Shown here: positions 10,141 to 49,967 of the stretch, piece by piece | Layout: each line of letters opens with the position of its first letter | How positions within the stretch are numbered: the stretch's first letter is position 1 | NCBI GenBank assembly: GCA_046715155.1 | Contig: JBKJZI010000031.1 | Coordinates: 10,875 to 74,874 of the forward strand | Direction: 5' to 3' | DNA from: Chthonomonadales bacterium | GTDB lineage: Bacteria > Armatimonadota > Chthonomonadetes > Chthonomonadales > CAJBBX01 | Length of the DNA: 64,000 nt | Made by a program: the position numbers and the translations under genes | The notes under the pieces: generated by a model | Told to the model about the DNA's origin: nothing | The model's input: the letters and a program-made list of their open reading frames with translations, nothing else | Databases searched by the model: none

Positions 10141-12045
10141 TTATACCTCGCAGGCGAGTTGAACTGAGAGAAGCATGATGGCGCGCTGATAGAGGCCTTC
10201 TCGAGAGATTCCCGGCGACTGCCTGCCTTCACAGAAGTCCTCTACGATCGGTTTGTATGCCTCTTGCCGGAAGAATTGAGGAAGCGCGCTTCCCGGGCCG
10301 AGCAGCGTGTCGAGAAGGCGAGCTCGGAATTCTGAATCCACCCACCGGTCCACCGGGATCATGAATCCGCCCTTCGGTTTCGACGCTACGGATGCTGGAA
10401 GGCGTTTTGCGGCTACGCCTCTCAGTATTCGCTTGCCGGTCTTCTCGCGGACCTTCAGTCTATGCGGAAGAGTCAGCCCAAAATCAAAAAGGGTCTCATC
10501 CAGCATCGGGACGCGTACTTCCAGGCTCTCTTTCATGCTCGCCGTGTCCACTTTGAATAGATAGTCATCCGCGAGGGTCAAGCGGGTCTGGACTTCGGTT
10601 GCGTGCGCCGATAGACGCTCTAGTCTTCCTGCTCCACGCGGAAGCCGGTAGTCCCATACCGGCTCGAAGTGGCGGCGGACGGGGAGATGGCCGGCCGAAA
10701 TCAGCAGCTCGCGATGCTCCGTTGGGCGAATCCAGCAGAGGAGCGTTTGCAGGATGTCGGAATCGTCCGCAGCCGAGAGCGATCGGAGGCGGGATGGAAG
10801 ACGGTCCGATACAATCCCCGTACGTGCCAAAAGACCGGCGCCGGCCGCAGCGCCAACGCGGGCCGGCGCCGGAATCCGCTGCCATCGGAGTATGTCCTCA
10901 ATGCGCCAGAAACTGTCATAGCCGCCGAATCCCTCGTCTCCCCCATCACCGGAGAGCGCAACCGTGACGTATTTTCGCATAAGGCGGCACACCGCATTCG
11001 CGGCAAAAAGGGATGTGTCGGCATAAGGCTGGCCCGCCTGCCGAAGGACGCCCGTAACGTGGTCCCAGGTGCCCGCCAACCCGCCCATGTCCAGAGTCAG
11101 GTGGTCGCTGCCGATATGACGGGCGACTTCCAAAGCAGCCCAGGTCTCATCATAGTCGTCTTCCGGGAACCGGACGTTGAAAGAGCGGATTCCGTTCGAC
11201 GCGGCTCGCTGCGCCGACGCGCTCACCAGGGAAGAATCGATTCCGCCGCTGAGCAGCGTACCAAGCGGCACGTCGCTCTCGAGTTGACTGGAGACGGCCG
11301 TGTCGATGAGATCGGCAGCCCTTTCCACCGCCAATTCTTCAGATAAACTGTCATCCGGGGCGATCGTCCAGCGATGATACGTGCTGCGCTGGATGTTTAC
11401 GTGTTCAGATTCCAGTTGGGCGACCAGAGTCTCACCGGGCTGCAGCGAACGGATGCCGAGGAAGAACGTTTGGGGCGCCGGGATATAGAAGAGCGAGGCG
11501 AAGTCATGCACCGCCTGAGAATCCGGAGTCCTGTCGACGCCGGGCATCTGGAGCAAGGCGCGAATCTCGCTTGCGAACGCGAGCCGGCCGGTTGTGTGGG
11601 AGTAAAAGAGCGGTTTGATTCCGAAGCGGTCGCGTGTGAGTAGTAAAAGCTTTCGCTTCAGGTCGAATACGGCGATGGCGAACATCCCACGGAGCTTGCG
11701 GACGAAATCAGCCCCATCTTCCTCATACTGGTGCAGAATGACCTGCGTGTCGGAATGCCCGCGGAATCTGTGCCCCTTCGCCTCCAGCTCTCTGCGCAGC
11801 TCGCGGTGATTGTATATCTCACCATTGTAAACGGTCCAGACGGTCTCGTCTTCGTTGGACATGGGCTGCAGCCCTAGCGGAGAGAGGTCTATAATGCTGA
11901 GACGGCGGTGGATGAGCGTACAGTCGGGCCATTCGCGCACTTCGCCGGCGTCAGGACCGCGATGGCGCAGCGACGCCTCGACCATTCCGGCGGCCCCCTG
12001 ACGGTCTCGAGGAGGCTCCCCTATCCATCCCGCGATTCCGCACAT
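10141..12045 (-). CDS. asnB: Asparagine synthase (glutamine-hydrolysing) family amidotransferase, paralogue 2
   Basis: The track ORF starts at 12060 (MAPSPMCGIAG). Ntn amidotransferases need Cys at position 2, so ATG 12045 (MCGIAGWIG) is the likely start. PP-loop LLSGGIDSSLVSA. Confidence 0.9.
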   Translation of the reverse strand: MCGIAGWIGEPPRDRQGAAGMVEASLRHRGPDAGEVREWPDCTLIHRRLSIIDLSPLGLQPMSNEDETVWTVYNGEIYNHRELRRELEAKGHRFRGHSDTQVILHQYEEDGADFVRKLRGMFAIAVFDLKRKLLLLTRDRFGIKPLFYSHTTGRLAFASEIRALLQMPGVDRTPDSQAVHDFASLFYIPAPQTFFLGIRSLQPGETLVAQLESEHVNIQRSTYHRWTIAPDDSLSEELAVERAADLIDTAVSSQLESDVPLGTLLSGGIDSSLVSASAQRAASNGIRSFNVRFPEDDYDETWAALEVARHIGSDHLTLDMGGLAGTWDHVTGVLRQAGQPYADTSLFAANAVCRLMRKYVTVALSGDGGDEGFGGYDSFWRIEDILRWQRIPAPARVGAAAGAGLLARTGIVSDRLPSRLRSLSAADDSDILQTLLCWIRPTEHRELLISAGHLPVRRHFEPVWDYRLPRGAGRLERLSAHATEVQTRLTLADDYLFKVDTASMKESLEVRVPMLDETLFDFGLTLPHRLKVREKTGKRILRGVAAKRLPASVASKPKGGFMIPVDRWVDSEFRARLLDTLLGPGSALPQFFRQEAYKPIVEDFCEGRQSPGISREGLYQRAIMLLSVQLACEV

Positions 12046-12049
12046 AGGG

Positions 12050-13258
12050 CTAGGGGCCACCTTTCGCAGCAGAATCCGGCGCCGAATCTACGCCGACGGA
12101 GACGAGTGTACGGGGTAAGTCTTGCTCACCCAGCTTCAAGAGCGGGCGGATGCGCGCCAGATACTCATCATATCCAAACATCGGAGCCGCCTGGAGCCCG
12201 TTCTTGCTATGCTCCATCCATCTGCCCGAATTCCGCACGTAATCCTGCACCGCATCTGCAAATCCGCGGATATCATCCTTTGGAAGCGCCGACCCAGTAC
12301 TGCACTGACGTAGAATCTGCGGAATCGACCCGACGTCGCTGGCCAACGGGACGACACCATACGCCATTGCCTCACTCAAGACCTTGGGCCAACCTTCGGA
12401 GTCGCTAGGGAGCATTATAATGTGAGATTCTCGGTAAAAGCTCGGAATTCCACGGCGCGGAATCCATCCGTGAAATTTCGCGCAATCGGAGATTCCGTTC
12501 TCGGTCGCCCGACGCTCCAGGGACTCGCGGTCCGGGCCGTCACCTATTAGATCAAGCGTTGAGTCTACACCAATCCGTTTCAGCTCGCCTAGAATTTCCA
12601 GCGCTCGGGCGGCCCCCTTTTCAACCTCGATTCCGCCTACATAGAGCAGTCGGACAGGGAGTCCCAGACTCTTGTCCTTTGCTGCAGCCGCCCCCTCGTT
12701 CAGCTCCTCTCTTGTAAGGCATGGATTCAGGAAAGAATGAACATGGCCGGGTTCGCCAACCCACTCACCATTGACGGTGACCTGCGCGCCGTGACGTCCC
12801 TTTCGGAGCCACCAGCGCTGGAATCGGTAGCTGAGCGGATCGTCCGCGGTGGGCCTCCAATTGCCGGCGTATTTGATCCAGCGCGTGCGGTGACGTGGCA
12901 TTAGGGGCAGTAGGAGGACCGCAAGCAAGCTGATGTTCGCTGGACAGCGCACGTGAATGACATCCGCGTTTTGACTCGCGCGCCAAATTGCCGCGCAATA
13001 GCCCGGCCAACGGGCGGGAATGCTCAGTTTGTCGACGAACCTTTCTCCGCCAGACGGCAGAACGGGGCGAAGCTCTACCCCTGGAGAGGTGTAGGGTGAT
13101 GCGCTGTCCGGAGCAGGCTCCGAGTGCAAAGGCGCGACGTGTACCACCGAGTCGAAGAGGCTTGCGAGGTAGTCGATCTCCCGAACTGTCGGTCCCCACC
13201 CCACAACGGTCCCATCGCGCTGATAGTGCGGAGTATGCGAAATGACCGCAAGCCTCAT
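12050..13258 (-). CDS. Glycosyltransferase family 4
   Basis: MRLAVISHTPHY is a typical GT-B start at ATG 13258; the track start 13306 is a GTG overlapping the upstream gene. C-terminal SDSEGWPKVLSEAMAYGVVPLASDVGSIPQIL. Confidence 0.8.
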   Translation of the reverse strand: MRLAVISHTPHYQRDGTVVGWGPTVREIDYLASLFDSVVHVAPLHSEPAPDSASPYTSPGVELRPVLPSGGERFVDKLSIPARWPGYCAAIWRASQNADVIHVRCPANISLLAVLLLPLMPRHRTRWIKYAGNWRPTADDPLSYRFQRWWLRKGRHGAQVTVNGEWVGEPGHVHSFLNPCLTREELNEGAAAAKDKSLGLPVRLLYVGGIEVEKGAARALEILGELKRIGVDSTLDLIGDGPDRESLERRATENGISDCAKFHGWIPRRGIPSFYRESHIIMLPSDSEGWPKVLSEAMAYGVVPLASDVGSIPQILRQCSTGSALPKDDIRGFADAVQDYVRNSGRWMEHSKNGLQAAPMFGYDEYLARIRPLLKLGEQDLPRTLVSVGVDSAPDSAAKGGP

Positions 13259-35876: not shown

Positions 35877-37086
35877 CCGGACAAACCGACATCGGCGAGG
35901 GATTCTGTGGCTCATGGTACTGCTCGCTGTGGCGGCGCTGGCCGTGAACGCTCCAGGGCTCCTCGCGCGCTTCGAAACACGCCGCTTGCGCGCACTTTCA
36001 ATGCACGAGCTGGAAAGTCTCGTCCAGAAAGAGCCCGCAAATCTCGAGGGCAGATACCAGCTCGGACTTGCGTATGCCCGAGCGGACCGTCAGCCTGATG
36101 CCGTACGCGAATTTGTGGCGGTGCTCCAGAAGGACCCCATTCGGGCGGACGTCCTGAACGACCTCGGTGTTTCCTACCTACTCCAGCAGCGTTATCATGA
36201 GTGTCTGGTCGCTCTTCGCGGAGCGCTGACAGCAAGGCCTGACTTCGCGCCCGCACGCGCCAATCTCGGCCGACTCTATATCGCGACGCACATGCCCTTC
36301 TCTGCCGTGAAGGAGCTCGAGAAAGCGGTCAAGCTGGAACCTGCTAATCCGTCTACGCGGTGCGACCTTGGCGAAGCGTACCAGCGCACGCTGAACCAGG
36401 CTGCGTCTGAACAGGCTTATCGAGACGCGCTAAAGGTAGATTCCACCCATACTCCGGCGCGCGTAGGACTTGGAAAGATCCTGTACGCCCGCACTCGCTA
36501 TGACGAATCCGAGCGCGAGTTGAATCAAGCGCTTGCTGATGACCCGGACAATGCGGACGCTTTGACCACACTCGGACGGATGCGCCTTGAGCGGTCAACC
36601 GGCGATTCCGATCTTCCGCAAGCTCGCGGACTGTTCGAAAGAGCTGCGAAAGCAGACCCCCAAAGCCCCGACGTCTGGTATGACCTTGGGCGTGTGACGA
36701 TGCGCGAGAAAAAGCCGGCACAGGCGGTCGAAATGTTTCGCCGCGCGCTCAGAATCTCATCCAGCCATACCGCTGCGATGAATCAGCTCGAGCGCGCCCT
36801 GCGCGCGGCCGGTCAAATCCAAGAGGCGGATCGAGTAGCTCGTGCATTCCACCAGTTGGCTATGCGCAGCAGGGAGAAAAATCTGCTGGAAGAACGAATC
36901 TCCCGCAACACCGGTGATTGGGATTCACGCGCGCGCCTCGTAGAGATTTACTTGCAGTCGGGAGAATCGGGCCTGGCTCAGCTCGTATATCGGCAGATAA
37001 AGGAAGGCGCTCCATCACACCCCAAGCTGCCGAATCTCTCCCGGATATTCGCGCGCTTTGGCTCGCCGACGGAATCCGACCCGTGA
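35818..37086 (+). CDS. TPR-repeat protein with N-terminal signal anchor
   Basis: 422 aa. Basic N-terminus, then LWLMVLLAVAALAV. Repeated TPR units (YQLGLAYA, NDLGVSYLLQ, ANLGRLYI, CDLGEAYQ, VGLGKILY, TTLGRMRL, YDLGRV). Start is uncertain: ATG 35818 overlaps the previous gene by 59 nt; ATG 35914 is the alternative. Confidence 0.8.
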   Translation: MAGRSQISSAAGHSPRKTANRTNRHRRGILWLMVLLAVAALAVNAPGLLARFETRRLRALSMHELESLVQKEPANLEGRYQLGLAYARADRQPDAVREFVAVLQKDPIRADVLNDLGVSYLLQQRYHECLVALRGALTARPDFAPARANLGRLYIATHMPFSAVKELEKAVKLEPANPSTRCDLGEAYQRTLNQAASEQAYRDALKVDSTHTPARVGLGKILYARTRYDESERELNQALADDPDNADALTTLGRMRLERSTGDSDLPQARGLFERAAKADPQSPDVWYDLGRVTMREKKPAQAVEMFRRALRISSSHTAAMNQLERALRAAGQIQEADRVARAFHQLAMRSREKNLLEERISRNTGDWDSRARLVEIYLQSGESGLAQLVYRQIKEGAPSHPKLPNLSRIFARFGSPTESDP

Positions 37087-38783
37087 TTCGAGTATCTAAT
37101 CCCTGGGGCGTCTTTGCAGCACTGTCATTCACCGCTACCATTGCCCTTTCAGGCTGCAACCGGTCGCCTCTTCCGATCAGCTCGGCCGCTGTACGTACGG
37201 CAGGCCCGCCACCGTTTCGATTGGTTGAGGCTGCGGCAGAGCGCGGAATTAACTTCCGTCATTCGCACGGGTCCACGTTGCCGCTGACAATCGTGGAGGC
37301 CCTGGGGAGCGGCTGCGCTTTCCTGGATTTCGACGACGACGGTAAGCTGGACGTGTTTCTTGTGAGCGCCGGCCAGGATTTTCGAATGGCGGTCCAGAAA
37401 CCGGCTTCGCGGCTGTACCGAAACACCGGCTCCAGCTTCGAGGACGTGACCTCACAATCCGGAATCCGCATCGACGGCTATGCCATGGGGTGCTGCGCGG
37501 GAGATTACGACAACGACGGCCGGACCGATCTCTTCGTGACCGGATTCGGTCGGAACTGGCTCTACCGGAACGTCGGAAGCGGCCGGTTCTCCGATGTTAC
37601 GAAAACAGTAGGAATCCTTCGAAGAGCAGGGGCCTGGGGGATGGGCTGCGCATTCTTGGATTTCAACCGCGACGGATTGCTCGACCTTTATATCGCAAAT
37701 TATGTGCGCTATGACCCGGCGATGCCGTTCTGCGAGACCGGGGGCGTCAAGCACGGATGCACGCCGAACCAATACCCAACCCAGCCGAACGAGTTGTACG
37801 TGAATCAAGGGAACGGCCGGTTCGTGGAGAAAGCCGTCGTCCTCGGAGCAGTAGACAAAACGGGCGCGGGTCTTGGCGTCGTAGTTTCCGACTTCGACAA
37901 TGACGGCTGGCCGGACATCTTCGTCGCAAACGACGGGACCCCCAACGCGCTCCTGCACAATGAAAAGGGCCGATTCCGCGACCTGGCGCCTCCAGCCGGC
38001 GTGGCCTACAGCGAGGACGGCGCAATGCGGGCGGGTATGGGCACGGATGCCGGAGATTTCGACGGCGACGGGCTGTTCGATCTGACCATCACCAACTTTC
38101 AGCACGAACCCAACGCGCTCTATCGCAACGCTGGAAAGATGACGTTCGAGGAAGTTACCTACCCCAGCGGAATCGGCACGCCGACTTTGAACCGTCTTGC
38201 ATTTGGCACCGTCTTCGCGGACATCGACCGCGATGGACTCCAGGACCTGTACGTCGGCAACGGGCATGTTTTCGATAACGTCCGGCTCTTCGACGACACC
38301 GCGACATACGAGCAGGTGGACCAGGTGTTTCGAGGTATTGGCGCGGGTCGATTCGAGGAAGTCCAGCCTTCCACCGGCGCCTTTCCGACGACGCCGTCCG
38401 TAACTCGCAGCGTGTCATACGGAGACTTCAACGACGACGGCGCCGTGGATCTGCTCATCAATAGCCTCGGAAAACCGGCCCGCCTGCTCGAGAACCGAAC
38501 CCCGCCGAGCGGCACCTGGATCGGTCTGAAGCTGCAGGGTTCGAAGAGCAACCGGAACGCTATCGGCGCGCGCGTCGAGCTCCGAGGTCCTGGAATGCTG
38601 CAGGTTCGCGAAGTTCGCAGCGGCGGAAGCTATCTTGGGCAGTCCGACTTCCGAGTCCTGTTCAACCTGGGCGCTGCTTCTCCGGCCGGCTTGAAGATTC
38701 GAATCCGCTGGCCGGATGGCCGATTACAGGAAATGCAGCTACCGACGATCAATGGCTACGCTTCGGTGGTGGAGCCGCGATGA
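37083..38783 (+). CDS. CRTAC1-family lipoprotein (FG-GAP/VCBS repeats + ASPIC/UnbV C-terminal domain), copy 1
   Basis: GTG 37083 forms a GTGA overlap with the TPR gene stop. Lipobox IALSGC. Repeated DFDxDGxxD motifs (DFDDDGKLD, DYDNDGRTD, DFNRDGLLD, DFDNDGWPD, DFDGDGLFD, DIDRDGLQD, DFNDDGAVD). C-terminal RNAIGARVEL...VRSGGSYLGQSD...IRWPDG. Confidence 0.9.
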   Translation: MIRVSNPWGVFAALSFTATIALSGCNRSPLPISSAAVRTAGPPPFRLVEAAAERGINFRHSHGSTLPLTIVEALGSGCAFLDFDDDGKLDVFLVSAGQDFRMAVQKPASRLYRNTGSSFEDVTSQSGIRIDGYAMGCCAGDYDNDGRTDLFVTGFGRNWLYRNVGSGRFSDVTKTVGILRRAGAWGMGCAFLDFNRDGLLDLYIANYVRYDPAMPFCETGGVKHGCTPNQYPTQPNELYVNQGNGRFVEKAVVLGAVDKTGAGLGVVVSDFDNDGWPDIFVANDGTPNALLHNEKGRFRDLAPPAGVAYSEDGAMRAGMGTDAGDFDGDGLFDLTITNFQHEPNALYRNAGKMTFEEVTYPSGIGTPTLNRLAFGTVFADIDRDGLQDLYVGNGHVFDNVRLFDDTATYEQVDQVFRGIGAGRFEEVQPSTGAFPTTPSVTRSVSYGDFNDDGAVDLLINSLGKPARLLENRTPPSGTWIGLKLQGSKSNRNAIGARVELRGPGMLQVREVRSGGSYLGQSDFRVLFNLGAASPAGLKIRIRWPDGRLQEMQLPTINGYASVVEPR

Positions 38784-40177
38784 AGACGGAGATGGCGGCT
38801 TTTGCGCTTTCGCTTTCGATCGGATTGGCAGGCTGCAGCCGGGCTCCGAAAGTCGGCGATGGTCCGGTAACTCCCGCGGTCACGGAATCCGCCGGCCAGG
38901 TTGATAACCCCACTGCACCGGTCCCATTCGCCGGTCAGCCGGCTTCAGGCCAGCCTTCCTTCGACTTTGAATCCGCACGGCGAGACGTTGAGAGCACGAT
39001 AGCGCGGAAACCCAAAGTCTTCGAGATGCGGATGCGGGCGGCCGAGTTTTACATGCGCTCCGGCGTATACCCTCCGGCCATTCCTCATCTGCGTGCAGCG
39101 GGCAACCTCCGGCCGAACGAGATCATGCCATGGATCGGCCTCGGGGATGCGGCAACCCTCTCGCGGAAGTTCCCAATCGCCGAGGAAGCCTACGGTCGCG
39201 CAGGCAGAATCGACGTTAAGCATCCTCTGCTCATTCGGGGTCGGGGCCAACTCTACGTCGTTCAGGAAAAGTTCGAGAAGGCGCGCGAAGTATTGGAGCG
39301 GGGAGTAAAGGAGCATCCGATGGATTCCGAGATACGCTATGCTCTGGCAAATCTCTTCCAAATCCTACACTCGCCGCGCCGCGCAGCCGAAGTCCTGAAA
39401 CCGGCGGTCGAGCAGAACCCGGAGCGTGCCGACCTCCACTTCCTCCTGGGCGAGATTTACGCGCGGGACCATCATATCAACGGCGCAATTACGGAGATGA
39501 GGGAGGCGCTCAGACTGGATCCCAGTTCGGCAGCGGCCGCGGGCAGGATCGGGCTCTATCTCATGAATCTGACGCGCTACGCCGAAGCCCGGGAAGCGCT
39601 CCAACAAGCAGTCAAGCTGGAGCCTCGCGAAGCACACTACTACTGGGCCATCGGGGACTCCTTCGCCCTGGAGTCCTCCTCGCCGGAATCCATGGAGAAA
39701 GCTGAGGAACATTACCGGAAGGCGCTTTCGCTGGACCCGCGGAACGCCAAGGCCCTCTCCTCCTACGCCGTCCTCCTCACCCGCAGGGGTAATGAAGCAG
39801 ACTTGAAAGAAGCGATCAGCATTCTGGAGCGCCTTGTGAAGCTGCACCCGGAGGACGCCAACGCCGAGTACAAGCTCTATGAGACCTACAAGCGGCTCGG
39901 GCGGGCGGCGGACGCGGAGAAGCACCGCCAGCGTTTCCAGGTCGCCTTTTCCAAAGAGCGTCAGGGTAACCGCGACCGTCACCGCTCCGCGTCGTTCAGG
40001 GATACTCCGGAAGCGCACCTCAAGCTCGCGCGAACCGCTATGGGCCGGAAGGACTTCCCGCTTGCCGCGACTGAGTTTCGCCTGGCCCTGGAGCGGGACC
40101 GCTCCTCCTCGGAAGCCCGCGCCGGCCTGCTCACCGCCCAACGGCAGCTCGGACTTACCTCCGGCGCCACCAGATGA
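38780..40177 (+). CDS. TPR-repeat lipoprotein
   Basis: 465 aa. ATGA overlap with the previous gene. Lipobox IGLAGC. Multiple TPR units. Confidence 0.88.
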   Translation: MKTEMAAFALSLSIGLAGCSRAPKVGDGPVTPAVTESAGQVDNPTAPVPFAGQPASGQPSFDFESARRDVESTIARKPKVFEMRMRAAEFYMRSGVYPPAIPHLRAAGNLRPNEIMPWIGLGDAATLSRKFPIAEEAYGRAGRIDVKHPLLIRGRGQLYVVQEKFEKAREVLERGVKEHPMDSEIRYALANLFQILHSPRRAAEVLKPAVEQNPERADLHFLLGEIYARDHHINGAITEMREALRLDPSSAAAAGRIGLYLMNLTRYAEAREALQQAVKLEPREAHYYWAIGDSFALESSSPESMEKAEEHYRKALSLDPRNAKALSSYAVLLTRRGNEADLKEAISILERLVKLHPEDANAEYKLYETYKRLGRAADAEKHRQRFQVAFSKERQGNRDRHRSASFRDTPEAHLKLARTAMGRKDFPLAATEFRLALERDRSSSEARAGLLTAQRQLGLTSGATR

Positions 40178-41841
40178 CCAGACTCCGGATTCTGGCTGTT
40201 CTCTTGGTCGCCGGCTGCTCTACTCCTCGCGGGGTGAACCGCGCCCCATCAATCCCAGCGGAATCCGGCCGATTCCGCAATGTCGCGTCCGAGAGCGGAA
40301 TCGGCGGATTTCAGCACGTTGACGGCGGCAGCGGGCGCAAGTTCTTCCTTGAGCAGGTGGGAGCGGGAGTCGCGATCTTCGACTACGACGGCGACGGATG
40401 GCAGGACGTCTACCTCTGTTCCGGAATCGCTCTTCCTGGGTATGCGGGACCGCCCGGACAGAACCGCCTCTTTCGGAACAAGCAGGACGGGACTTTCGAG
40501 GACGTGACCGATTCCGCGGGTGTCGCGTGCCGCAAGTACGCGATCGGCGCTGCGGCGGCGGACTACGACAACGACGGGAGGATCGACCTCTACGTCACCT
40601 GCTTCGGCGGGAACGTGCTCTACCGGAATCTCGGCGAGGGTAAGTTTGAGGACATCACGCTGAAAGCTCGCGTTGGGGGCGGGAAGCGGTTGAGCTCCAG
40701 CGCGGCGTGGGGCGACTACGACGGCGACGGCTACCTGGACCTTTTCGTCTGCAATTACGTGAAGTACCGGCTGGAGGAGGACCTCTGGTGCGGGAAAATC
40801 GCCGGCCACAAGAGCTATTGCGGGCCTAACCTCTACGAGCCGGATTCCGCTATCCTTTTCCACAATAACCGGGACGGCACGTTCACCGACGTGTCCGATA
40901 CCTCCGGAATCGGAAAGCAAGCCGCGAACGGCCTCGGCGTGGTCTGGCTCGATTACGACGACGACGGCGATCAGGACATCTTTGTGGCGGACGACCAGAC
41001 TCCTAATCGCCTCTGGCGCAATAACGGCAACGGCACGTTCACGGACGTCGCGCTGGCGATGGGAGTCGCCGTGGGCGAGCGGGGCAACGCGCAGGCGGGA
41101 ATGGGTGTTGACTCCGGCGACTTCGACAACGACGGCGACCTGGACATCCTGGTGACCAATTTCAGCGAGGAGACCAACGCCCTCTATCTGAACGAAGGCG
41201 CCGCCTTCCGCGACATCTCCTTCCCCTCCGGAATGGGCGCGGCCACCCTGATGTACCTCGGATTCGGCACGGGGTTCCTGGACTACGACAGCGACGGCCT
41301 GCTGGACATGTTCTTCGCCAACGGCCACGTGCTGGACGACATCGAGACTTACTCCGACGCCGTCACCTGGAAACAGTCCAATCAGCTCTTCCGCAACATC
41401 GGCGACCGCCGGTTCGAGGAAGTCTCGGCTGCCAGCGGAATCTCCGAGGGTAAGCGGGTCTCGCGCGGCGCGGCATTCGGCGACCTCTTCAACCGCGGCC
41501 GCACCGACATCGTGGTGAACGTCCTCCGCGAGCAACCCCTGGTCCTGCGCAACGAGACCGCGCCGGATTCCCACTGGATATCCCTGGACCTTCGGGCGAG
41601 CAAGGGGAATCCGCAGGCGATCGGCGCAAAGGTCTGGCTCAACGCCGGCGGAATCACCCAGCGCCGCGATATCAAATCCGCCGGCTCCTACGCCTCCTCC
41701 AACGACCCCCGCCCCCTCTTCGGCCTCGGCAAGAACAAAACCATAGATTCCGTCCGAATCCGCTGGCCCGGGGGCCGAGAATCCGAGATCAAAACGCCGC
41801 AGGTGGATCAGATCCTGCGCGTCGACGAGCCGACGCATTGA
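40174..41841 (+). CDS. CRTAC1-family lipoprotein (FG-GAP/VCBS + ASPIC/UnbV), copy 2
   Basis: 555 aa. ATGA overlap with the previous gene. Lipobox LVAGC. Same DxDxDG repeat series. C-terminal PQAIGAKVWL...KSAGSYASSNDPR...IRWPGG. Confidence 0.9.
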   Translation: MTRLRILAVLLVAGCSTPRGVNRAPSIPAESGRFRNVASESGIGGFQHVDGGSGRKFFLEQVGAGVAIFDYDGDGWQDVYLCSGIALPGYAGPPGQNRLFRNKQDGTFEDVTDSAGVACRKYAIGAAAADYDNDGRIDLYVTCFGGNVLYRNLGEGKFEDITLKARVGGGKRLSSSAAWGDYDGDGYLDLFVCNYVKYRLEEDLWCGKIAGHKSYCGPNLYEPDSAILFHNNRDGTFTDVSDTSGIGKQAANGLGVVWLDYDDDGDQDIFVADDQTPNRLWRNNGNGTFTDVALAMGVAVGERGNAQAGMGVDSGDFDNDGDLDILVTNFSEETNALYLNEGAAFRDISFPSGMGAATLMYLGFGTGFLDYDSDGLLDMFFANGHVLDDIETYSDAVTWKQSNQLFRNIGDRRFEEVSAASGISEGKRVSRGAAFGDLFNRGRTDIVVNVLREQPLVLRNETAPDSHWISLDLRASKGNPQAIGAKVWLNAGGITQRRDIKSAGSYASSNDPRPLFGLGKNKTIDSVRIRWPGGRESEIKTPQVDQILRVDEPTH

Positions 41842-43388: not shown

Positions 43389-44580
43389 TTACTGCGGGAC
43401 TAGCATGACGGCCCGCTGAGGCTGGTTGCTTGGACTGCGCGCCCAGCCTACTATGATCGCGGTCCCAGCATCCGTGACGCTCGTAGCAAACTCGATCGTC
43501 CAGGTCTGATCTGACGGGATCAGGAGGTCGTTGAGGTCGGTGACCGTTCCGTTCGGCGCGTTCGTACCGGACGGGGTCCAGGCCACGGCCCGTCGTTGGC
43601 CCAACGCGTTCGTCGATGTCCCGACGACGATTCCGGCAGAGCTTACGTCAAATGCTATGCTAGACGTTCCTCCCAGACTTGGCAGGGCGAACGTCGTTCC
43701 GGTAGTAGCATTCGCTCCGGACGGCGTCCAGAGGAACGCCTGCTGCGGGTTCCCGGGCGCCGCGCCGAATCCTACGACCTGCCCGAAGTTATTGATAGCC
43801 CGAGCGAATGTTGAAGAGAACGCGACCGGCGTAGGATTGACGGAGATGCTCGGGAGGGCGAATGCCGTGCCGCCGGACCAGACGACCGCCTGGAAGTCGC
43901 TTGTGCCGTTATGCATCTCGCCTGCGATTTGCCGTGAGTCGTTCACATCGGTCGCGCCACTTCGGGCGAACGTCGTTCCACCGATGTTCTTGGGCAGGTC
44001 GGTTCGCGCCCCGTTCACCCAGGAAGTGGCGGTATGAACGCCGGAGCCGTCCAGAAGGGAACCGACCATCATCGGCGCCGGGAAGACTCCCGGATTGTTG
44101 ATCCCGTCCGCGCGGCTGCCGAATCCGGCCGCCGTGTCGAGCGGCGACATCTCTCCACTGATCGTCTTGAAGAAAGCCACCAGCTTTCCGTCCGATAGGT
44201 TCGAGTTGCCCACTACCGTGGACGCCTCATTCATGTTGACGCCGAAGCTGTTCCGGCCGCCAAGCGTACCAATGTCGGTGGGCGGGGTTGGCCCCGTGAA
44301 CAGGAACGCATGCGTGTCCCCGTTGGAAAACCTCTGATACGCGCCCGTGGCGTGATTGGCGTTGTTCACGCGCAGCACGGAACTGTTAAGCTCTCGGCCG
44401 GGGTCGCCGGACGTGGAAGATGGGAGCACGCCGAGGTCGATCACGCGGTAAAGCGTAGCTAGCGATTGAGCCGCTGCCCCGCTTGCTGGGCAGTCGGCCT
44501 CCGCAGCCGGCGAGCGTTGCTCCAATGAACGCACAACACACAACTGGTAGATACCGTCGCGGGAATCTTTTGAACTGCAT
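43389..44580 (-). CDS. HAF-family extracellular repeat protein; lipoprotein signal peptide is in a different frame from the body (frameshift, possible pseudogene or sequencing error)
   Basis: The body (track ORF 43389..44648) has repeats ending in HAFLFTG / FQAVVWSGG / QQAFLWTP / RRAVAWTP with TLGG-type motifs. ATG 44580, with AAGGAG 7 nt upstream, encodes MQFKRFPRRYLPVVCCAFIGATLAGCGG in the frame of track ORF 44386..44802. Confidence 0.7.
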
Positions 44581-44932
44581 CTTTCTACTCCTTGGTATAA
44601 CCGAGTATGACCATCTGTCCTGGTCCAGGGATACGACGCCGGAACCAAAACGGCAAAGAAGAATGAGGAAAAGGGCCGTCAGGCCGGAGGTGCTGAGCGT
44701 GACGGTGCGCATTGCGCACGAACCGCTTGTCCTCGGAGTCCCCGATGAAGCTGGGGGACTTCTACCGCGCCGCCAGCAACTGAACCGGCAATTTGCGCGC
44801 AACTCATTGCAGAGTCAAACGCAAGACGAACGAACATTGCCGCTTGTTCCGGCTTGTGAAAGAGTTTTTTCAGGCGGGCAATTTGAGAATCCGAAGTCCA
44901 ATGTCGAATCAGGCAATTACACGCCAAAGTGA

Positions 44933-45041: not shown

Positions 45042-45527
45042 TTAGAGGCATCGCAGCGTACCCTGATCGCAGGTATTGCTGCAGCACTGGTCGTTGTTGG
45101 TACATGCCGCCCCCGGCGGTAGGGTCCCGGGCCCGACACAGGTTTGAGCCTGGGCAGGGGTGGGTGCGACGATGGAATGGATCGCGGGAAGGAGCACGGT
45201 CAGTCCCCCCACGAGCGCGAGCTTTTTCATGACTGCCCGGCGGGAAACATGAGTATCGCTCTTGGGTGCGTCGTCGGCTAGGAGCCTGGCGGTCTCAAGC
45301 CGTTCGAGCGCAAGCATGACCAACTCTTCGCTCTCCGGAGCGTTCAACTCCTCATGCATAATCCGCGCCACATCCCCAATGCTCCGTTTTCCGTCGCAGT
45401 GACGCCAGACCAGCGCGGCGGTCGCGTTAAGGCTGTGTGCCTTGTGGTTGTCCAAGTCATAAACGAGGGTTTCCTCCGCAAGTTCTTCAACGAGGAGACG
45501 TTCTCGTCGTGCGTTCGGAAGCTGCAT
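45042..45527 (-). CDS. PqqD/RRE-like domain protein fused to a Tat-like hydrophobic segment and a 6-Cys C-terminal tail
   Basis: 161 aa. SD GGAGAGGAA before the ATG. AHSLNATAALVWRHCDGKRSIGDVARIM (PqqD-like); SRRAVMKKLALVGGLTVLLPAIHSIVAPTPAQAQ; TCVGPGTLPPGAACTNNDQCCSNTCDQGTLRCL. Confidence 0.8.
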   Translation of the reverse strand: MQLPNARRERLLVEELAEETLVYDLDNHKAHSLNATAALVWRHCDGKRSIGDVARIMHEELNAPESEELVMLALERLETARLLADDAPKSDTHVSRRAVMKKLALVGGLTVLLPAIHSIVAPTPAQAQTCVGPGTLPPGAACTNNDQCCSNTCDQGTLRCL

Positions 45528-45562
45528 GGCTTATGATTCCTCTCCGTCGGGCATTCGAGCCG

Positions 45563-46387
45563 CTAGCGGCTCATCTGTTTCAGTATCTTACCTGCAATTT
45601 CATCCGCTTCGCCACGCGTCCCTTTCAGGAATCGCGCGTTTGCGGTCGCTTGCTTGAGCGTTGCCATTGAATCGGCCGGACGCTTCCGCACCGGTACCGT
45701 GTTCGATAGCAGCTCAAGAATACCTTTTCCATGTGGAAGAGTGCGCGGCTGCCAACGCGCGCCTTCCTTATAAGTCAGAGAAAGTACCGCTCCAACCGGA
45801 ATCGGCTTCTTTGCCGCTCGTCCGCCGAACGCTTCCACCGGGGTTGGCGTTCCAACCGTCTCGGCGCCTTTTCTTATCGAAAGCGGCCGCGCATAAGGGT
45901 GTACCAGCCCTTCTCGATCGATTACGGCGTATTCGTCCGAGTAATACGCGGCCCCCGCCTCCACCATGGCCGCAACCAGCCGCGACTTGCCGCTGAAGCT
46001 TCGGCCCGGCAGCAAGATCGCCCGCTCCTTCCAACCAACAACCCCGGCATGGACAAAGAGCACCTTCGGCGCCATCTGCGGTACGAAATACTCCACGCTG
46101 TTCCGGAAGCTGCGGAGGAGCTCGCCCAGATCTTCGGTGCGCGCGATCTGAATAAACTCTTCATACAGCAAGTGGAACGTTCTGGTTCCTCGCCGCCGCG
46201 GCCGATCTGCAACCCTTATTGAATAGAGCAAATCCACGTGCCGCGGGCGGATAGAACGCGCCTGGGGAGGCAGATGCTCCTTTATCTGTGGAATCAGCTC
46301 CGGCAGGTTAGTTCTCACTCCCACACGAACGCCGTAGCTCATGAATGAAAAGCCGGCCGCCCAGCCCAGGCGGTCTATTTCGTCCAT
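45563..46387 (-). CDS. HPr kinase/phosphorylase C-terminal-domain-like P-loop protein (HprK-related kinase)
   Basis: 274 aa. SD AAAGGTG. FVHAGVVGWKERAILLPGRSFSGKSRLVAAMVEAGAAYYSDEYAVIDREG. No HprK N-terminal domain. Confidence 0.8.
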   Translation of the reverse strand: MDEIDRLGWAAGFSFMSYGVRVGVRTNLPELIPQIKEHLPPQARSIRPRHVDLLYSIRVADRPRRRGTRTFHLLYEEFIQIARTEDLGELLRSFRNSVEYFVPQMAPKVLFVHAGVVGWKERAILLPGRSFSGKSRLVAAMVEAGAAYYSDEYAVIDREGLVHPYARPLSIRKGAETVGTPTPVEAFGGRAAKKPIPVGAVLSLTYKEGARWQPRTLPHGKGILELLSNTVPVRKRPADSMATLKQATANARFLKGTRGEADEIAGKILKQMSR

Positions 46388-46637
46388 TCATGGCACCTTT
46401 CGGCGCATTTGCGGAAGGTCTTCCACTATCGTCTGCGGCACGGAATCATTGCTTCCTAACTAGACAGGGATAAGGTATTACTGTGCGGTCAAGTTTGCGT
46501 GCGGGCTGATTTGCGGCAGCAGAGCCATGAGCGACCCGCAGTAAGACCAATTCGCGGTACAAATTGTGCCACATAGACGGTGCGGCTATCAATACCTGCA
46601 ACACCGTTTTCGCCCGCTCGGTTACCGAAAGACTTTC

Positions 46638-46661
46638 TGGCGCCCTCGACTGAGGGCGCCA
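46638..46661 (-). terminator. Candidate terminator hairpin downstream of the sugar dehydrogenase gene
   Basis: TGGCGCCCTC gact GAGGGCGCCA: 10-bp perfect stem, 69 nt after the stop at 46730. The trailing sequence on the minus strand, GAAAGTCTTTCGG, is only weakly U-rich. Confidence 0.5.
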
Positions 46662-48029: not shown

Positions 48030-49967
48030 TTATCCTAATCCATAGTGTTCCAGCCACGCCTGGAACATGAGTATATCCCACAGAGCGAGCTGCCGATTCC
48101 GGCGTTTGGTCTGATGTTCGCGCCATACTTGATCGACCACTCCAGCGTTGAAGTACCCTTCTCGGCGAAGCCGTGCAGGCTCCAGGAGCGCCGCTGCCCA
48201 CTCTCGAAGCGGGCCGCGGAGCCAGCTGTCCAATGGAAGCGTAAAGCCGGCTTTGGGCCGCTCGACCAGGGCCGGCGGAACATAGCGATAGAGCGCCCGC
48301 CTTAAGAGTTGCTTACCTTTGCCATCCGATATCTTCATCGACAGAGGAATCCGCCAGGAGAGGGCAAACAGCCGGTGATCCAACAAAGGCTCTCGCGCCT
48401 CAAGGCCGACGGACATGCTTGCCCGGTCGACCTTAACGAGGATGTCGTCGGGGAGATAGCGCATCTGATCCGAGAGCATCATTCGCTCGGCAAACGGCAT
48501 TCCTGGTACAGCGGTGTTCGGGGCGTCGTCGAAGTCTGACGCTCCCAGTACCACCGATTCCGGCGTCAGCCAGTGGGACTGGATGTTCCTGAAGAACTGC
48601 CAGTCTCCTCGGGAGCTCAACGCCTGCGCCAGTTTGTGGACTTTATCGGCCGGATTCCGCTCTCGCAACCGTGGAAATACGCCGCCTCCTGCCAGGTCCC
48701 ATGCCGCGGGAGGGATCGCGCGCATAAGTCGACCGACCGCTTTACGCGCGGGGACAGGGAGGCGCCGAACGTTCGCCCACATCCGCGGTCCCCACAGGTA
48801 GCGGGTGTAACCACCGAACAGCTCATCGCCACCGTCCCCACTGAGCGCGACCGTAACAGATTCCCTCGCGAGTCTGGACACGAGGAGGGTCGGGATCTGC
48901 GAGGCATCGCCAAACGGCTCATCGTAAACTTCGGGCAATCGCGGAATCACTTCCATTGCCTCGGTGGAAGTTACGTAGAGTTCCGTGTGGTCTGTGCCCA
49001 GATGTTTCGCGACGCCGAGCGCCCACGCCGCTTCGTCATATGCCTTTTCGCGAAATCCGATGGAGAACGTCTTGACCGCGTTTGAAGATTGCTCACACAT
49101 CAAGGCCGTCACGAGCGAGGAGTCAATCCCTCCAGAAAGGAACACGCCGAGCGGAACGTCCGCAACCATTCGCAAGCGCACGGATTCATGCAGCGCTGCT
49201 TCGAGCTCGCCGGTTGCTGATTCCGCATCTACAATCTGGGTCTGCACTCCCGCGACAGCAACATCTTCGGCACGCCAGTAAGCGCGCGGCTCGCCCGCCA
49301 GGCCGGAGTCAATGCTGATTTCAAGGACGGAACCGGCTGGAAGCTTTCGGATTCCGCAATAGATCGATTGCGGCGCCGGAACGTAGCCGTACCGTACGTA
49401 TTCCAAGAGCGCGTCACGGTCCACCTCAGAGTCGAAGGCTGGATGGACCCGCAGCGCCTTCAGCTCCGATCCGAATAAGAACGACCTGCCGCAAGTCCCA
49501 TAGTAGAGCGGTTTTACGCCCAGGCGGTCACGCGCGAGGATCAGGCGGCGACTTTGACTGTCCCACAGCGCGAAGGCGAACATTCCCACGAAGCGGTCCA
49601 GCGCCCGCTCCAGTCCCCACTCTTCCACCGCCGCCAGTATGACCTCGGTGTCGGAATGCCCGCGGAATCGCACGCCCTGGTCGCTTTCGAGAGTCGCTCG
49701 CAGCTCGGGATGGTTGTAGACCTCGCCATTGTACGCGATGACAAACCGGCCCGAAGACGAAACCATGGGCTGATGACCGGCGGCGGAAAGATCGATGACA
49801 GAGAGGCGGCGGAATCCGACCGCGAAGCCGGCACCTGCGTCCGCCCAGACGCCGCAATCGTCCGGCCCTCGGTGCTGCAGCTTTGCCGCCATTCGGCCTG
49901 CGATGTCGCAAAGGCGCTCTTCAGGATCGGTGGAACCTACGCTAAGGAATCCGGCGAATCCGCACAT
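48030..49967 (-). CDS. asnB: Asparagine synthase (glutamine-hydrolysing) family amidotransferase, paralogue 3
   Basis: 645 aa. MCGFAGF start (Cys2). PP-loop VFLSGGIDSSLVTA. Confidence 0.92.
   Translation of the reverse strand: MCGFAGFLSVGSTDPEERLCDIAGRMAAKLQHRGPDDCGVWADAGAGFAVGFRRLSVIDLSAAGHQPMVSSSGRFVIAYNGEVYNHPELRATLESDQGVRFRGHSDTEVILAAVEEWGLERALDRFVGMFAFALWDSQSRRLILARDRLGVKPLYYGTCGRSFLFGSELKALRVHPAFDSEVDRDALLEYVRYGYVPAPQSIYCGIRKLPAGSVLEISIDSGLAGEPRAYWRAEDVAVAGVQTQIVDAESATGELEAALHESVRLRMVADVPLGVFLSGGIDSSLVTALMCEQSSNAVKTFSIGFREKAYDEAAWALGVAKHLGTDHTELYVTSTEAMEVIPRLPEVYDEPFGDASQIPTLLVSRLARESVTVALSGDGGDELFGGYTRYLWGPRMWANVRRLPVPARKAVGRLMRAIPPAAWDLAGGGVFPRLRERNPADKVHKLAQALSSRGDWQFFRNIQSHWLTPESVVLGASDFDDAPNTAVPGMPFAERMMLSDQMRYLPDDILVKVDRASMSVGLEAREPLLDHRLFALSWRIPLSMKISDGKGKQLLRRALYRYVPPALVERPKAGFTLPLDSWLRGPLREWAAALLEPARLRREGYFNAGVVDQVWREHQTKRRNRQLALWDILMFQAWLEHYGLG

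Follow-up and report, generated by a model that had tools for sequence, protein, structure and literature searches.

A kinase-linked protein family that joins a PqqD-type domain, a twin-arginine-like segment and a hypervariable cysteine-rich tail

What does a bacterium make from a gene that encodes, in a single reading frame, a peptide-recognition domain, an apparent export signal and a small cysteine-rich tail, and what does the kinase encoded beside it act on? Such a gene pair lies on the minus strand of a 64,000-nucleotide stretch of contig JBKJZI010000031.1 (assembly GCA_046715155.1) from a Chthonomonadales bacterium of the Armatimonadota; we refer to this whole stretch as the window. The upstream gene encodes an HprK-related P-loop protein (hereafter the kinase), and the downstream gene encodes a protein that we named PQ, for PqqD-Tat-tail precursor (Tat, twin-arginine translocation). 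A preliminary description of the locus, made from the letters alone, had reported two open reading frames (ORFs), their coordinates, a gap of 35 nt, a Shine-Dalgarno (SD) sequence before each gene, several peptide strings and the cysteine spacing of the tail, and all of these proved exact.

That description offered two readings, a self-contained module with recognition domain, export signal and core in one polypeptide, or a membrane-anchored protein displaying its tail outside the cell. The comparative data favour the former, and the interpretation as a whole is partly supported. We propose that kinase and PQ form a two-gene unit under a promoter of its own, and that its product is a fast-evolving, disulfide-rich peptide exported from the cell and derived from a precursor with a built-in recognition domain, a proposal that we consider about equally likely to be right or wrong.

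Architecture and conservation of PQ

The N-terminal part of PQ had been called a PqqD-type recognition element (RRE) of peptides made on ribosomes and modified after translation (RiPPs), and this call held. Residues 19-79 match the Pfam family PF05402 (PqqD) at 36.5 bits against a cutoff of 23.4. An AlphaFold (AF2) model built on 115 homologues gave the domain a pLDDT of 89-95, with strands at 11-15, 20-24 and 29-33 followed by helices at 35-42, 50-61 and 67-79. Its best structural matches were the lasso-peptide B1 proteins TbiB1 (5v1u/5v1v) and TfuB1 (6jx3), with TM-scores of 0.69-0.77 on the target, and then PqqD; a sequence search returned weak matches to the same lasso B1 and PqqD structures.

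PQ belongs to a large family. A word-index search found 677 relatives, nearly all full length at 157-200 aa, and a profile search of 1.84 billion cluster representatives found 11,019 at E<=1e-3, 6,054 at E<=1e-10 and 2,179 at E<=1e-30. Scanning one genome per species yielded 244 relatives. Carriers include Acidobacteriota (Blastocatellia, Pyrinomonadaceae, Chloracidobacterium), Gemmatimonadota, Armatimonadota, Methylomirabilota/Rokubacteria, Nitrospinota and Anaerolineales, among others, and the nearest relatives, 88-90% identical to the window protein, come from forest and farmland soil metagenomes. The few annotated members are named by NCBI simply 'PqqD family peptide modification chaperone'.

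Could the three parts have been joined by an annotation or assembly artefact, or by a chance ORF running through separate genes for a PqqD protein and a small secreted peptide? We found no support for this idea, although gene callers do mis-call the region in some contigs. Thousands of independent sequences, drawn from several phyla, keep the three-part ORF unbroken. None of the homologues shows a stop between the PqqD part and the tail (a feature that the preliminary description had told readers to look for), nor is any internal start codon conserved. Because the architecture recurs in thousands of proteins without an intervening stop, the observation goes far beyond chance, and we regard the artefact explanation as refuted, with only a trace of residual doubt. 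We also rejected the idea that translation begins internally at M99 to produce a Sec pre-peptide of its own, since this Met varies among relatives, Leu occupying its column most often, and the domains are never separated by a stop. Using the signal and tail alone as a word-index query for free-standing secreted forms returned one fragment of the PQ family only. As a separate observation, one locus (L089:6809-8032) has two tandem PQ genes between a kinase gene and a gene of the NTP_transf_5 family, which the public gene call missed, predicting instead a spurious ORF of 206 aa in a different frame; annotations may list fewer PQ genes than exist.

The preliminary description had treated the mid-protein position of the Tat-like segment as an oddity. 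This segment is instead the most conserved part of the system, and it has a free-standing counterpart in related loci, described below. Among 350 non-identical relatives, R96 is present in 350/350 and R97 in 349/350, flanked by S/T95 (322/350) and R/K101 (308/350). Within the hydrophobic core, P114 (343/343), V/I116 (348/350), S/T118 (346/350) and P122 (344/349) are nearly invariant, and AF2 placed a beta-strand at 116-120 rather than one unbroken helix. The segment ends in a conserved A-x-A, with A125 in 286 and A127 in 306 of 349 relatives, and is followed by S/T129 (318/349). Set against the Tat consensus S/T-R-R-x-F-L-K, the window protein has S-R-R-A-V-M-K, a moderately hydrophobic core and A-x-A. 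The identification of a Tat-like segment therefore stands, with the strict arginine pair and conserved A-x-A indicating an export signal that would be cut rather than a mere membrane anchor.

Conservation beyond the signal is limited to the cysteine positions. The spacing of the window tail, C-x11-C-x5-CC-x3-C-x6-C, has, as had been pointed out, the C-C-CC-C-C framework of knottins, in which disulfides I-IV, II-V and III-VI make a threaded knot, but only a minority of relatives share this framework. The others use many frameworks, with 4, 6, 8 or 10 and more cysteines (up to 18) in dozens of spacings, and a few carry cysteine-free tails with low-complexity or longer cargo. The number of cysteines is nearly always even, in 105/110 and 106/117 tails of two samples. 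Paralogues at one locus differ in framework, and tails diverge faster than the leaders that precede them, a leader identity of 95% corresponding to a tail identity of 64% and one of 85% to 50%. AF2 modelled window residues 141-160 as a compact, confident structure (pLDDT 86-90). A Pfam scan assigned the tail to no significant family, Conotoxin_I2 scoring 13.4 against a cutoff of 27. We read the tail as hypervariable cargo in many even-cysteine frameworks, with no conserved knottin. A conserved leader followed by a hypervariable, apparently disulfide-stabilised extracytoplasmic product is a signature seen in RiPP precursors and secreted toxins.

We also compared the cleavage region with a lipobox. 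A127-[AQ]-[ST]-C130 is weakly similar to [LVI][ASTVI][GAS]C, but has Ala at -3, Thr at -1 in 125/349 relatives and Cys in only 248/349. The even cysteine totals, which count C130 in, speak against lipidation, and a lipoprotein seems unlikely.

The kinase, the gene order and the HPr-rel-A system

The kinase had been described as the P-loop core of an HPr kinase lacking the HprK N-terminal domain. The P-loop part of this description is borne out at the level of fold. The AF2 model (pLDDT 89.9) matched in Foldseek the C-terminal domains of HprK/P and PEPCK, which share one P-loop fold, with E ~1e-4 and TM-scores of 0.5-0.57 on the HprK/P C-domains. The similarity to HprK/P is at fold level only, as a PDB sequence search returned noise only and a Pfam scan found no domain, neither Hpr_kinase_C (PF07475)/TIGR00679 nor the HprK N-domain being matched. 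Nor is the protein simply an HprK without its N-terminal domain, since it has an alpha/beta N-terminal domain of its own (~105 residues, ~1-105) ahead of the P-loop domain. The family comprises 5,857 relatives that we could find. Across 101 homologues G128, G133 and K134 of the Walker motif are invariant, as are H113, S150, D151, R172 and R258. The Walker motif, whose loss on alignment the preliminary description had named as a refutation, is thus intact, as are the conserved His and Asp; we take the Walker residues and H113, D151, R172 and R258 to be those of the HprK/P catalytic motifs.

PQ genes recur in a characteristic order. At 80 related loci the recurring arrangement on one strand is kinase, then one to four copies of PQ, then a nucleotidyltransferase of the NTP_transf_5 family (PF14907). 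For 68 PQ genes with enough flanking DNA, the kinase lies directly upstream in 26, NTP_transf_5 directly downstream in 28 and both in 20, and at least one of the two enzymes is found within 5 kb in 42. Several loci have two to four tandem PQ genes between the enzymes, and loci seeded with the kinase gave kinase-PQ-NTP, kinase-PQ-PQ-NTP and one kinase-NTP pair.

The same enzymes define a curated but purely bioinformatic system. HPr-rel-A (NCBIfam) consists of HprK-related kinase A (TIGR04352), a PqqD family peptide chaperone (TIGR04353) and a PF14907 nucleotidyltransferase. The preliminary description had pointed to such a system near polysaccharide loci without verifying membership. By the curated cutoffs the window pair is not a member: the kinase scores 53 bits on TIGR04352, under the trusted cutoff of 200 (a relative at L025 reaches 59), and TIGR04353 (cutoff 35 bits) gave no match to the window PQ at E<=0.1. 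As homology the suggestion is sound, with a homologous kinase, the same nucleotidyltransferase family among relatives and polysaccharide genes recurring nearby.

A tblastn search with the kinase against annotated plasmids led to a Sphingomonas plasmid (NZ_CP155749.1, L090) bearing an HPr-rel-A locus, whose genes NCBI lists as 'HPr-rel-A system PqqD family peptide chaperone', 'HprK-related kinase A' and 'nucleotidyltransferase family protein'. These proteins pass the curated models (TIGR04353, 60 bits; TIGR04352, 228 bits; PF14907 matched). Directly upstream of the PqqD gene, at L090:4942-5427, is a 'hypothetical protein' that contains TSRRMLMLGAVGASTVIAVRPALAQTTASV as an ordinary N-terminal twin-arginine signal. 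A Vibrio alfacsensis plasmid (L092:3878-4690) has the same layout, with SRRRFIRSAAISSPILLSIKSPSAWA and a cysteine-rich cargo, and a kinase that is just 29% identical. The order at such classical loci is Tat-signal protein, PqqD, kinase A and NTP_transf_5. A precursor with the strict pattern [ST]RR..ALMLGA...IVSI[RK]PALA-QT is present at 40 of the 66 metagenomic classical loci (L094-L173) with enough upstream DNA, most of which come from one alphaproteobacterial clade and are not mutually independent. The SI[RK]xP motif of these precursors is related to the core motif of the PQ signal. No Pfam or NCBIfam model covers them.

The two groups of loci are linked by fusion or fission. Comparison of the PQ-family kinase with classical kinase A by hhalign gave 98.8% probability (E=7e-17), a PqqD-fold partner occurs in both, most PQ relatives also have NTP_transf_5, and both have a signal protein of the form [ST]RR...SI(x)xP...AxA, the last being our own observation outside the curated definition. 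They differ in that PqqD and signal precursor are fused in the window family and encoded by separate neighbouring genes in classical loci, and in gene order (kinase-PqqD-NTP versus precursor-PqqD-kinase-NTP). The cargo of PQ is 25-70 aa, hypervariable and cysteine-rich, that of classical precursors a conserved domain of ~100 aa, and the window lineage has no nearby NTP_transf_5 gene. Because the PqqD and Tat-signal genes are neighbours in classical loci and fused in PQ, the comparison argues that the signal-bearing protein is what PqqD, and by extension the kinase and nucleotidyltransferase, would act on.

Export, modification and competing explanations

Based on these comparisons, we propose the following course of events. 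PQ would be translated as a 161-aa pre-pro-protein whose RRE folds in the cytoplasm and serves as a handle for the co-encoded HprK-type kinase and, in most relatives, for NTP_transf_5. RREs take up a peptide as an additional strand alongside beta-3; as AF2 predicts a strand and not a helix at 116-120 (SIVAP), the RRE may hold the adjacent signal in cis until modification is done. The kinase would phosphorylate a hydroxyl of the precursor, the best candidates being the near-invariant S118, T123 and T129 around the cleavage site, and NTP_transf_5, where present, may extend the phosphate by analogy with phosphoglycosylated lasso peptides. The S-R-R-x-h-h-K motif and moderately hydrophobic core would then take the C-terminal part across the membrane while the RRE stays inside. 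We favour Tat as the route, with Sec possible, because a Tat-like post-translational route suits a substrate that must be modified before export. Signal peptidase I would cut after A125-Q-A127 to release a 34-residue peptide, its six cysteines would form three disulfides outside the cytoplasm, and the product may act at the cell surface, in the exopolysaccharide (EPS) matrix or on other organisms. Taken together these steps would describe a new class of ribosomal natural product, in which an RRE placed in cis before a Tat signal recruits a kinase (and nucleotidyltransferase), masks the signal until phospho- or phosphoglycosyl modification and allows Tat export of a hypervariable disulfide-rich product. 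We advance this fuller version tentatively and think it possible but doubtful. If true, the same logic distributed over separate genes would explain the orphan HPr-rel-A system, with the Tat-signal protein as its substrate.

Several findings weigh against this course of events. The Tat motif begins at residue 95, after a folded domain, which is unusual, and the Tat model TIGR01409 scores residues 94-127 at 14.5 bits, just under its cutoff of 16.7. By hand calculation the core has a mean Kyte-Doolittle hydropathy of ~2.0 over 19 residues, equally compatible with a Sec signal or a membrane anchor, and the evidence for cleavage is the conservation of A-x-A. Only 3 of 110 tails end in Ser, whereas lasso kinases use a C-terminal Ser; as tails rarely end in Ser, the kinase acceptor must differ from that of lasso peptides, or the substrate may not be PQ. 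With regard to synteny, 26 of the 68 PQ genes are orphans that lack both enzymes within 5 kb, PQ is absent from the 6 kb around one kinase-NTP pair, and tblastn with NTP_transf_5 seeds found none in the window. The match between the fused and the classical PqqD domains is weak in hhalign (9.6%, E=0.0033). The literature that we searched held no experiment on any member and nothing on the PQ family or on HPr-rel-A function, the only related work being on lasso peptides and bufferins.

Some of these points would be expected if PQ were an uncleaved single-pass membrane protein (N-in, C-out), as in the second reading of the preliminary description. The segment would then be a signal-anchor with its charged residues (RR/KK) obeying the positive-inside rule, PqqD would tether the kinase and NTP_transf_5 to the inner face of the membrane to act on another target such as an EPS intermediate or another peptide, and the ectodomain would be a sensor or surface ligand. 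In length and hydrophobicity the stretch would suffice for a transmembrane helix, the Tat score under cutoff and the kinase-NTP pair standing apart from PQ fit this picture, and the gene recurs beside the polysaccharide genes Wzy_C, a Wzz-type kinase, Poly_export and TPR-CBM. An anchor does not, however, explain the conserved A-x-A with which the segment closes, nor why the arginine pair is strictly invariant with no Lys substitutions. The equivalent protein of classical loci has the motif as an ordinary N-terminal signal, and the change of cysteine framework between paralogues of one locus is unexpected for a sensor domain. We judge the anchor explanation unlikely, though deserving of weight.

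A closer variant keeps the proposed architecture and cleavage and changes the export route and the role of the kinase. Export would proceed by Sec/YidC, and the kinase would regulate the precursor, at S95 or a residue of the RRE, to gate or time export, leaving the peptide unmodified. Small peptides that acquire disulfides after export normally use Sec, the in-frame M99-K-K-L... of the window protein resembles a Sec n-region, and S/T95 is conserved to the extent given above. On the other hand, M99 varies among relatives, the arginine pair does not, the S/T-R-R-x-h-h-K/R pattern matches the Tat consensus, and cytoplasmic modification before export better fits a post-translational route such as Tat. 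This variant seems to us distinctly improbable, and we retain Tat export of a modified precursor as the working proposal.

How does the proposal compare with known systems? One close parallel is the phospho- and phosphoglyco-tailoring module of lasso peptides (paeninodin, pseudomycoidin). There the precursor is phosphorylated while still linear, ahead of maturation, by an HPr-kinase homologue, and hexose is attached to this phosphate by a nucleotidyltransferase (PMC8498205). The module brings together the same three kinds of protein, a B1 RRE, an HPr-kinase homologue and a nucleotidyltransferase, and the RRE of PQ is structurally closest to lasso B1 proteins. Unlike lasso clusters, the window pair has no B2 protease, lasso cyclase or ABC exporter beside it (the nearby AsnB being of the Asn-synthase type), in agreement with the preliminary remark on the missing lasso protease and cyclase, radical-SAM enzyme and ABC exporter. 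PQ would also differ in export by a signal peptide, in a scaffold of disulfides rather than a lariat, and in tails that rarely end in Ser. Separately, a weak kinase match on the Hyphomicrobiales plasmid CP131057.1 (L093:4686-8766) lies in an apparent lasso cluster with an HprK-like kinase, a sulfotransferase-like gene and a PqqD/B1 gene; the opposite strand carries an Asn-synthetase-like cyclase.

Long-leader RiPP precursors of the NHLP/Nif11 type and conotoxin-type prepropeptides have a conserved N-terminal ~80-130 residues, a hypervariable core and divergent paralogues. PQ likewise has a conserved leader, a hypervariable core and multiple divergent paralogues per locus. Their leaders, in contrast, are not RREs and are cut by C39 peptidase-ABC exporters or eukaryotic convertases instead of signal peptidase. 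The Tat proofreading chaperones TorD, DmsD and NapD, which stay bound to a twin-arginine signal peptide until maturation has finished, offer a conceptual likeness only, in that a cytoplasmic domain is paired with a Tat-type signal that AF2 draws partly as a strand; they belong to another fold family, and in PQ the domain is fused in cis and its binding putative. Finally, bufferins (DUF2282) are cysteine-containing ribosomal peptides in which a general-secretion signal replaces the classical leader and the RRE-type partner is DUF2063 (PMC11626156; PMC12710340). They resemble PQ as cysteine-containing ribosomal precursors with a secretion-type signal and an RRE. They differ in an N-terminal Sec signal, MNIO enzymes and a separate RRE protein, where PQ has an RRE fused before a twin-arginine signal together with a kinase and nucleotidyltransferase.

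The transcription unit, its surroundings and its significance

The kinase-PQ pair appears to form an independent bicistronic unit at the edge of an EPS cluster, because its promoter is conserved in all four contigs compared (the window and its three closest relatives, L084-L086, from forest and farmland soil) and hairpins flank it (Table 1). The promoter was the sole promoter-like site in the region scanned, and its block GTATTGATAG...TTGTGGCACAATCTGT is near-invariant in the window, L084, L085 and L086 while its flanks are divergent. Just downstream, the 5' leader shows patchy conservation; Rfam had no family matching it, and no Rfam or tRNA match was found anywhere in the window. A purine-rich SD (AAAGGTG, 46394-46400) precedes the kinase ATG. 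The hairpin upstream of the promoter is kept in L084-L086 and is likely the terminator of the upstream EPS operon. Beyond PQ, positions 44920-45045 fold at -56.3 kcal/mol (z = -4.0; 0/200 shuffles fold equally well). The terminator scan did not call the hairpin there, which lacks a U-tract; it is probably the end of the bicistronic transcript.

Table 1. Features of the kinase-PQ locus, with positions counted in the window
Feature	Position	Strand	Basis
GC-rich palindromic hairpin, flanked by the kinase promoter and the UDP-sugar dehydrogenase gene upstream of it	46638..46661		terminator-like scan
Sigma-70-type promoter: TTGATA, 18-nt spacer, extended -10 TG-n-CACAAT	46563..46592	minus	scan
5' untranslated leader of the kinase/PQ transcript, ~170 nt, SD included	46388..46562	minus	inferred from conserved promoter and start codon
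Kinase-like gene, HprK-related P-loop protein, 274 aa	45563..46387	minus	ORF; TIGR04352 and fold matches
Walker A / P-loop of the kinase, G128-R-S-F-S-G-K134-S135	45983..46006	minus	conservation in homologues
SD of the PQ gene, GGAGAGGAA, purine-rich	45537..45545	minus	direct sequence reading
PQ gene (PqqD-Tat-tail precursor protein), 161 aa	45042..45527	minus	ORF; relatives by search
RRE / PqqD-like winged-helix domain, residues ~8-85	45273..45506	minus	PF05402, AF2 and structural matches
Twin-arginine motif S95-R96-R97-A-V-M-K101	45225..45245	minus	conservation; TIGR01409
Signal hydrophobic core, residues 102-122, KLALVGGLTVLLPAIHSIVAP, with LLPx[VI]xSI[VI]AP motif	45162..45224	minus	conservation
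c-region T-P-A125-Q-A127, predicted signal-peptidase I site (A-x-A)	45147..45161	minus	conservation; cleavage inferred
Predicted released peptide QTCVGPGTLPPGAACTNNDQCCSNTCDQGTLRCL, 34 aa, 6 Cys, framework C-C-CC-C-C	45045..45146	minus	Cys conservation and parity
14-bp GC-rich hairpin, ~75 nt past the PQ stop codon	44934..44967	minus	RNA folding

Almost all genes of the window are for EPS biosynthesis, and the pair stands at the 3' end of this large cluster. L084-L086 have the same arrangement, a kinase-PQ pair with NTP_transf_5 absent. From the gene order of other lineages, the window pair reads as a shortened version of a larger cassette whose usual last gene is NTP_transf_5. Its position in all four contigs might suggest a regulatory module of the adjacent EPS operon, like an anti-sigma or partner-switching device in which a serine kinase sets the state of a membrane protein with a cytoplasmic winged-helix domain and the tail is functionless as a product. 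The kinase activity of HprK/P proper is regulatory, and response-regulator genes are present at 12 related loci. Yet the pair has its own promoter and occurs in many other contexts, including between rpoC and rpsL in Gemmatimonadota, with no sigma factor or DNA-binding partner conserved nearby. Multi-copy hypervariable tails with strict cysteine parity argue that the tail is a selected product. A regulatory role of this kind therefore strikes us as very improbable, and we keep to the exported-peptide proposal.

Other features of the window are noted here in their own right. A HAF-repeat/DUF3466-like protein (43389-44648) is the conserved downstream neighbour of PQ in the window lineage; its gene sits where other lineages have NTP_transf_5 and is parted from PQ by the strong hairpin. 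Three paralogous glutamine-dependent amidotransferases of the asparagine-synthase type are encoded at 7100-8986, 10141-12060 and 48030-49967. The last starts with MCGF, has GATase domains and scores 481 on TIGR01536 (cutoff 267), 224 on the lasso cyclase model (cutoff 525) and 572 bits on the XrtA/PEP-CTERM amidotransferase model (cutoff 817). A lasso cluster was accordingly rejected, as the window has no B2 protease or cyclase and the three paralogues are glutamine-hydrolysing, EPS-type enzymes. An anti-phage defence system was likewise rejected, PADLOC giving no match. At 36918-41841 a pair of genes, one for a TPR protein and one for an FG-GAP/ASPIC (UnbV) protein, is repeated in tandem, an arrangement kept in L084 (L084:13706-19714). 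Two short minus-strand ORFs at 35912-36721 have a third-position GC of 0.42-0.50 against ~0.7 elsewhere and may be non-coding or foreign DNA.

At related loci we observed further neighbours. Giant PorU-like Peptidase_C25 proteins occur at 19 of 57 well-framed loci (NF033707, 221 bits against a cutoff of 420), and proteins of 1,000-2,700 aa related to this type IX secretion sortase flank the cassette at L001:9812-16024, L055:11761-14826 and 24 more loci; the window has no C25 gene. In Gemmatimonadota/Longimicrobiales (L003, L015, L019, L028, L032, L038, L063 and L080) the cassette lies between rpoB-rpoC and rpsL-rpsG-fusA, an unusual place for an accessory module. Seven loci (L019:11444-12595 and relatives) have, between PQ and NTP_transf_5, a ~383-aa protein with no Pfam domain and a very weak match to the flagellin lysine-N-methylase FliB (E=0.001), which may be an extra tailoring enzyme. 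On plasmid 1 of Gemmatirosa kalamazoonensis KBS708 (NZ_CP007129.1, L091:5356-9618), kinase and PQ (6-Cys tail) are followed by a membrane protein of 307 aa that combines a MauE domain (PF07291) with a CxxC (CAHC) in its C-terminal part, and the NTP_transf_5 gene is on the opposite strand. A MauE-CxxC oxidoreductase after PQ fits extracytoplasmic disulfide formation.

The components and the triad are already in databases, and leader/core logic in the style of RiPPs is familiar. Our literature search found no published description of the RRE-signal-cargo fusion, of hypervariable even-cysteine cargo or of the Tat-signal partner at classical loci. The kinase/PqqD/nucleotidyltransferase triad has been curated with a 'peptide chaperone' and no peptide named; PQ and the classical Tat-signal genes nominate a substrate and make the system testable, and Gemmatirosa kalamazoonensis KBS708, a cultured carrier, makes experiments feasible. 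An RRE fused before an internal export signal would be a new coupling of cytoplasmic modification to general secretion, unlike export by leader peptidases and ABC transporters. The family comprises thousands of hypervariable disulfide-rich mini-proteins in hard-to-culture soil phyla, which may offer stable bioactive scaffolds. For Acidobacteriota and Gemmatimonadota, dominant and poorly understood bacteria of soil, the EPS and PorU-like C25 neighbours hint at a role in cell envelope or biofilm matrix.

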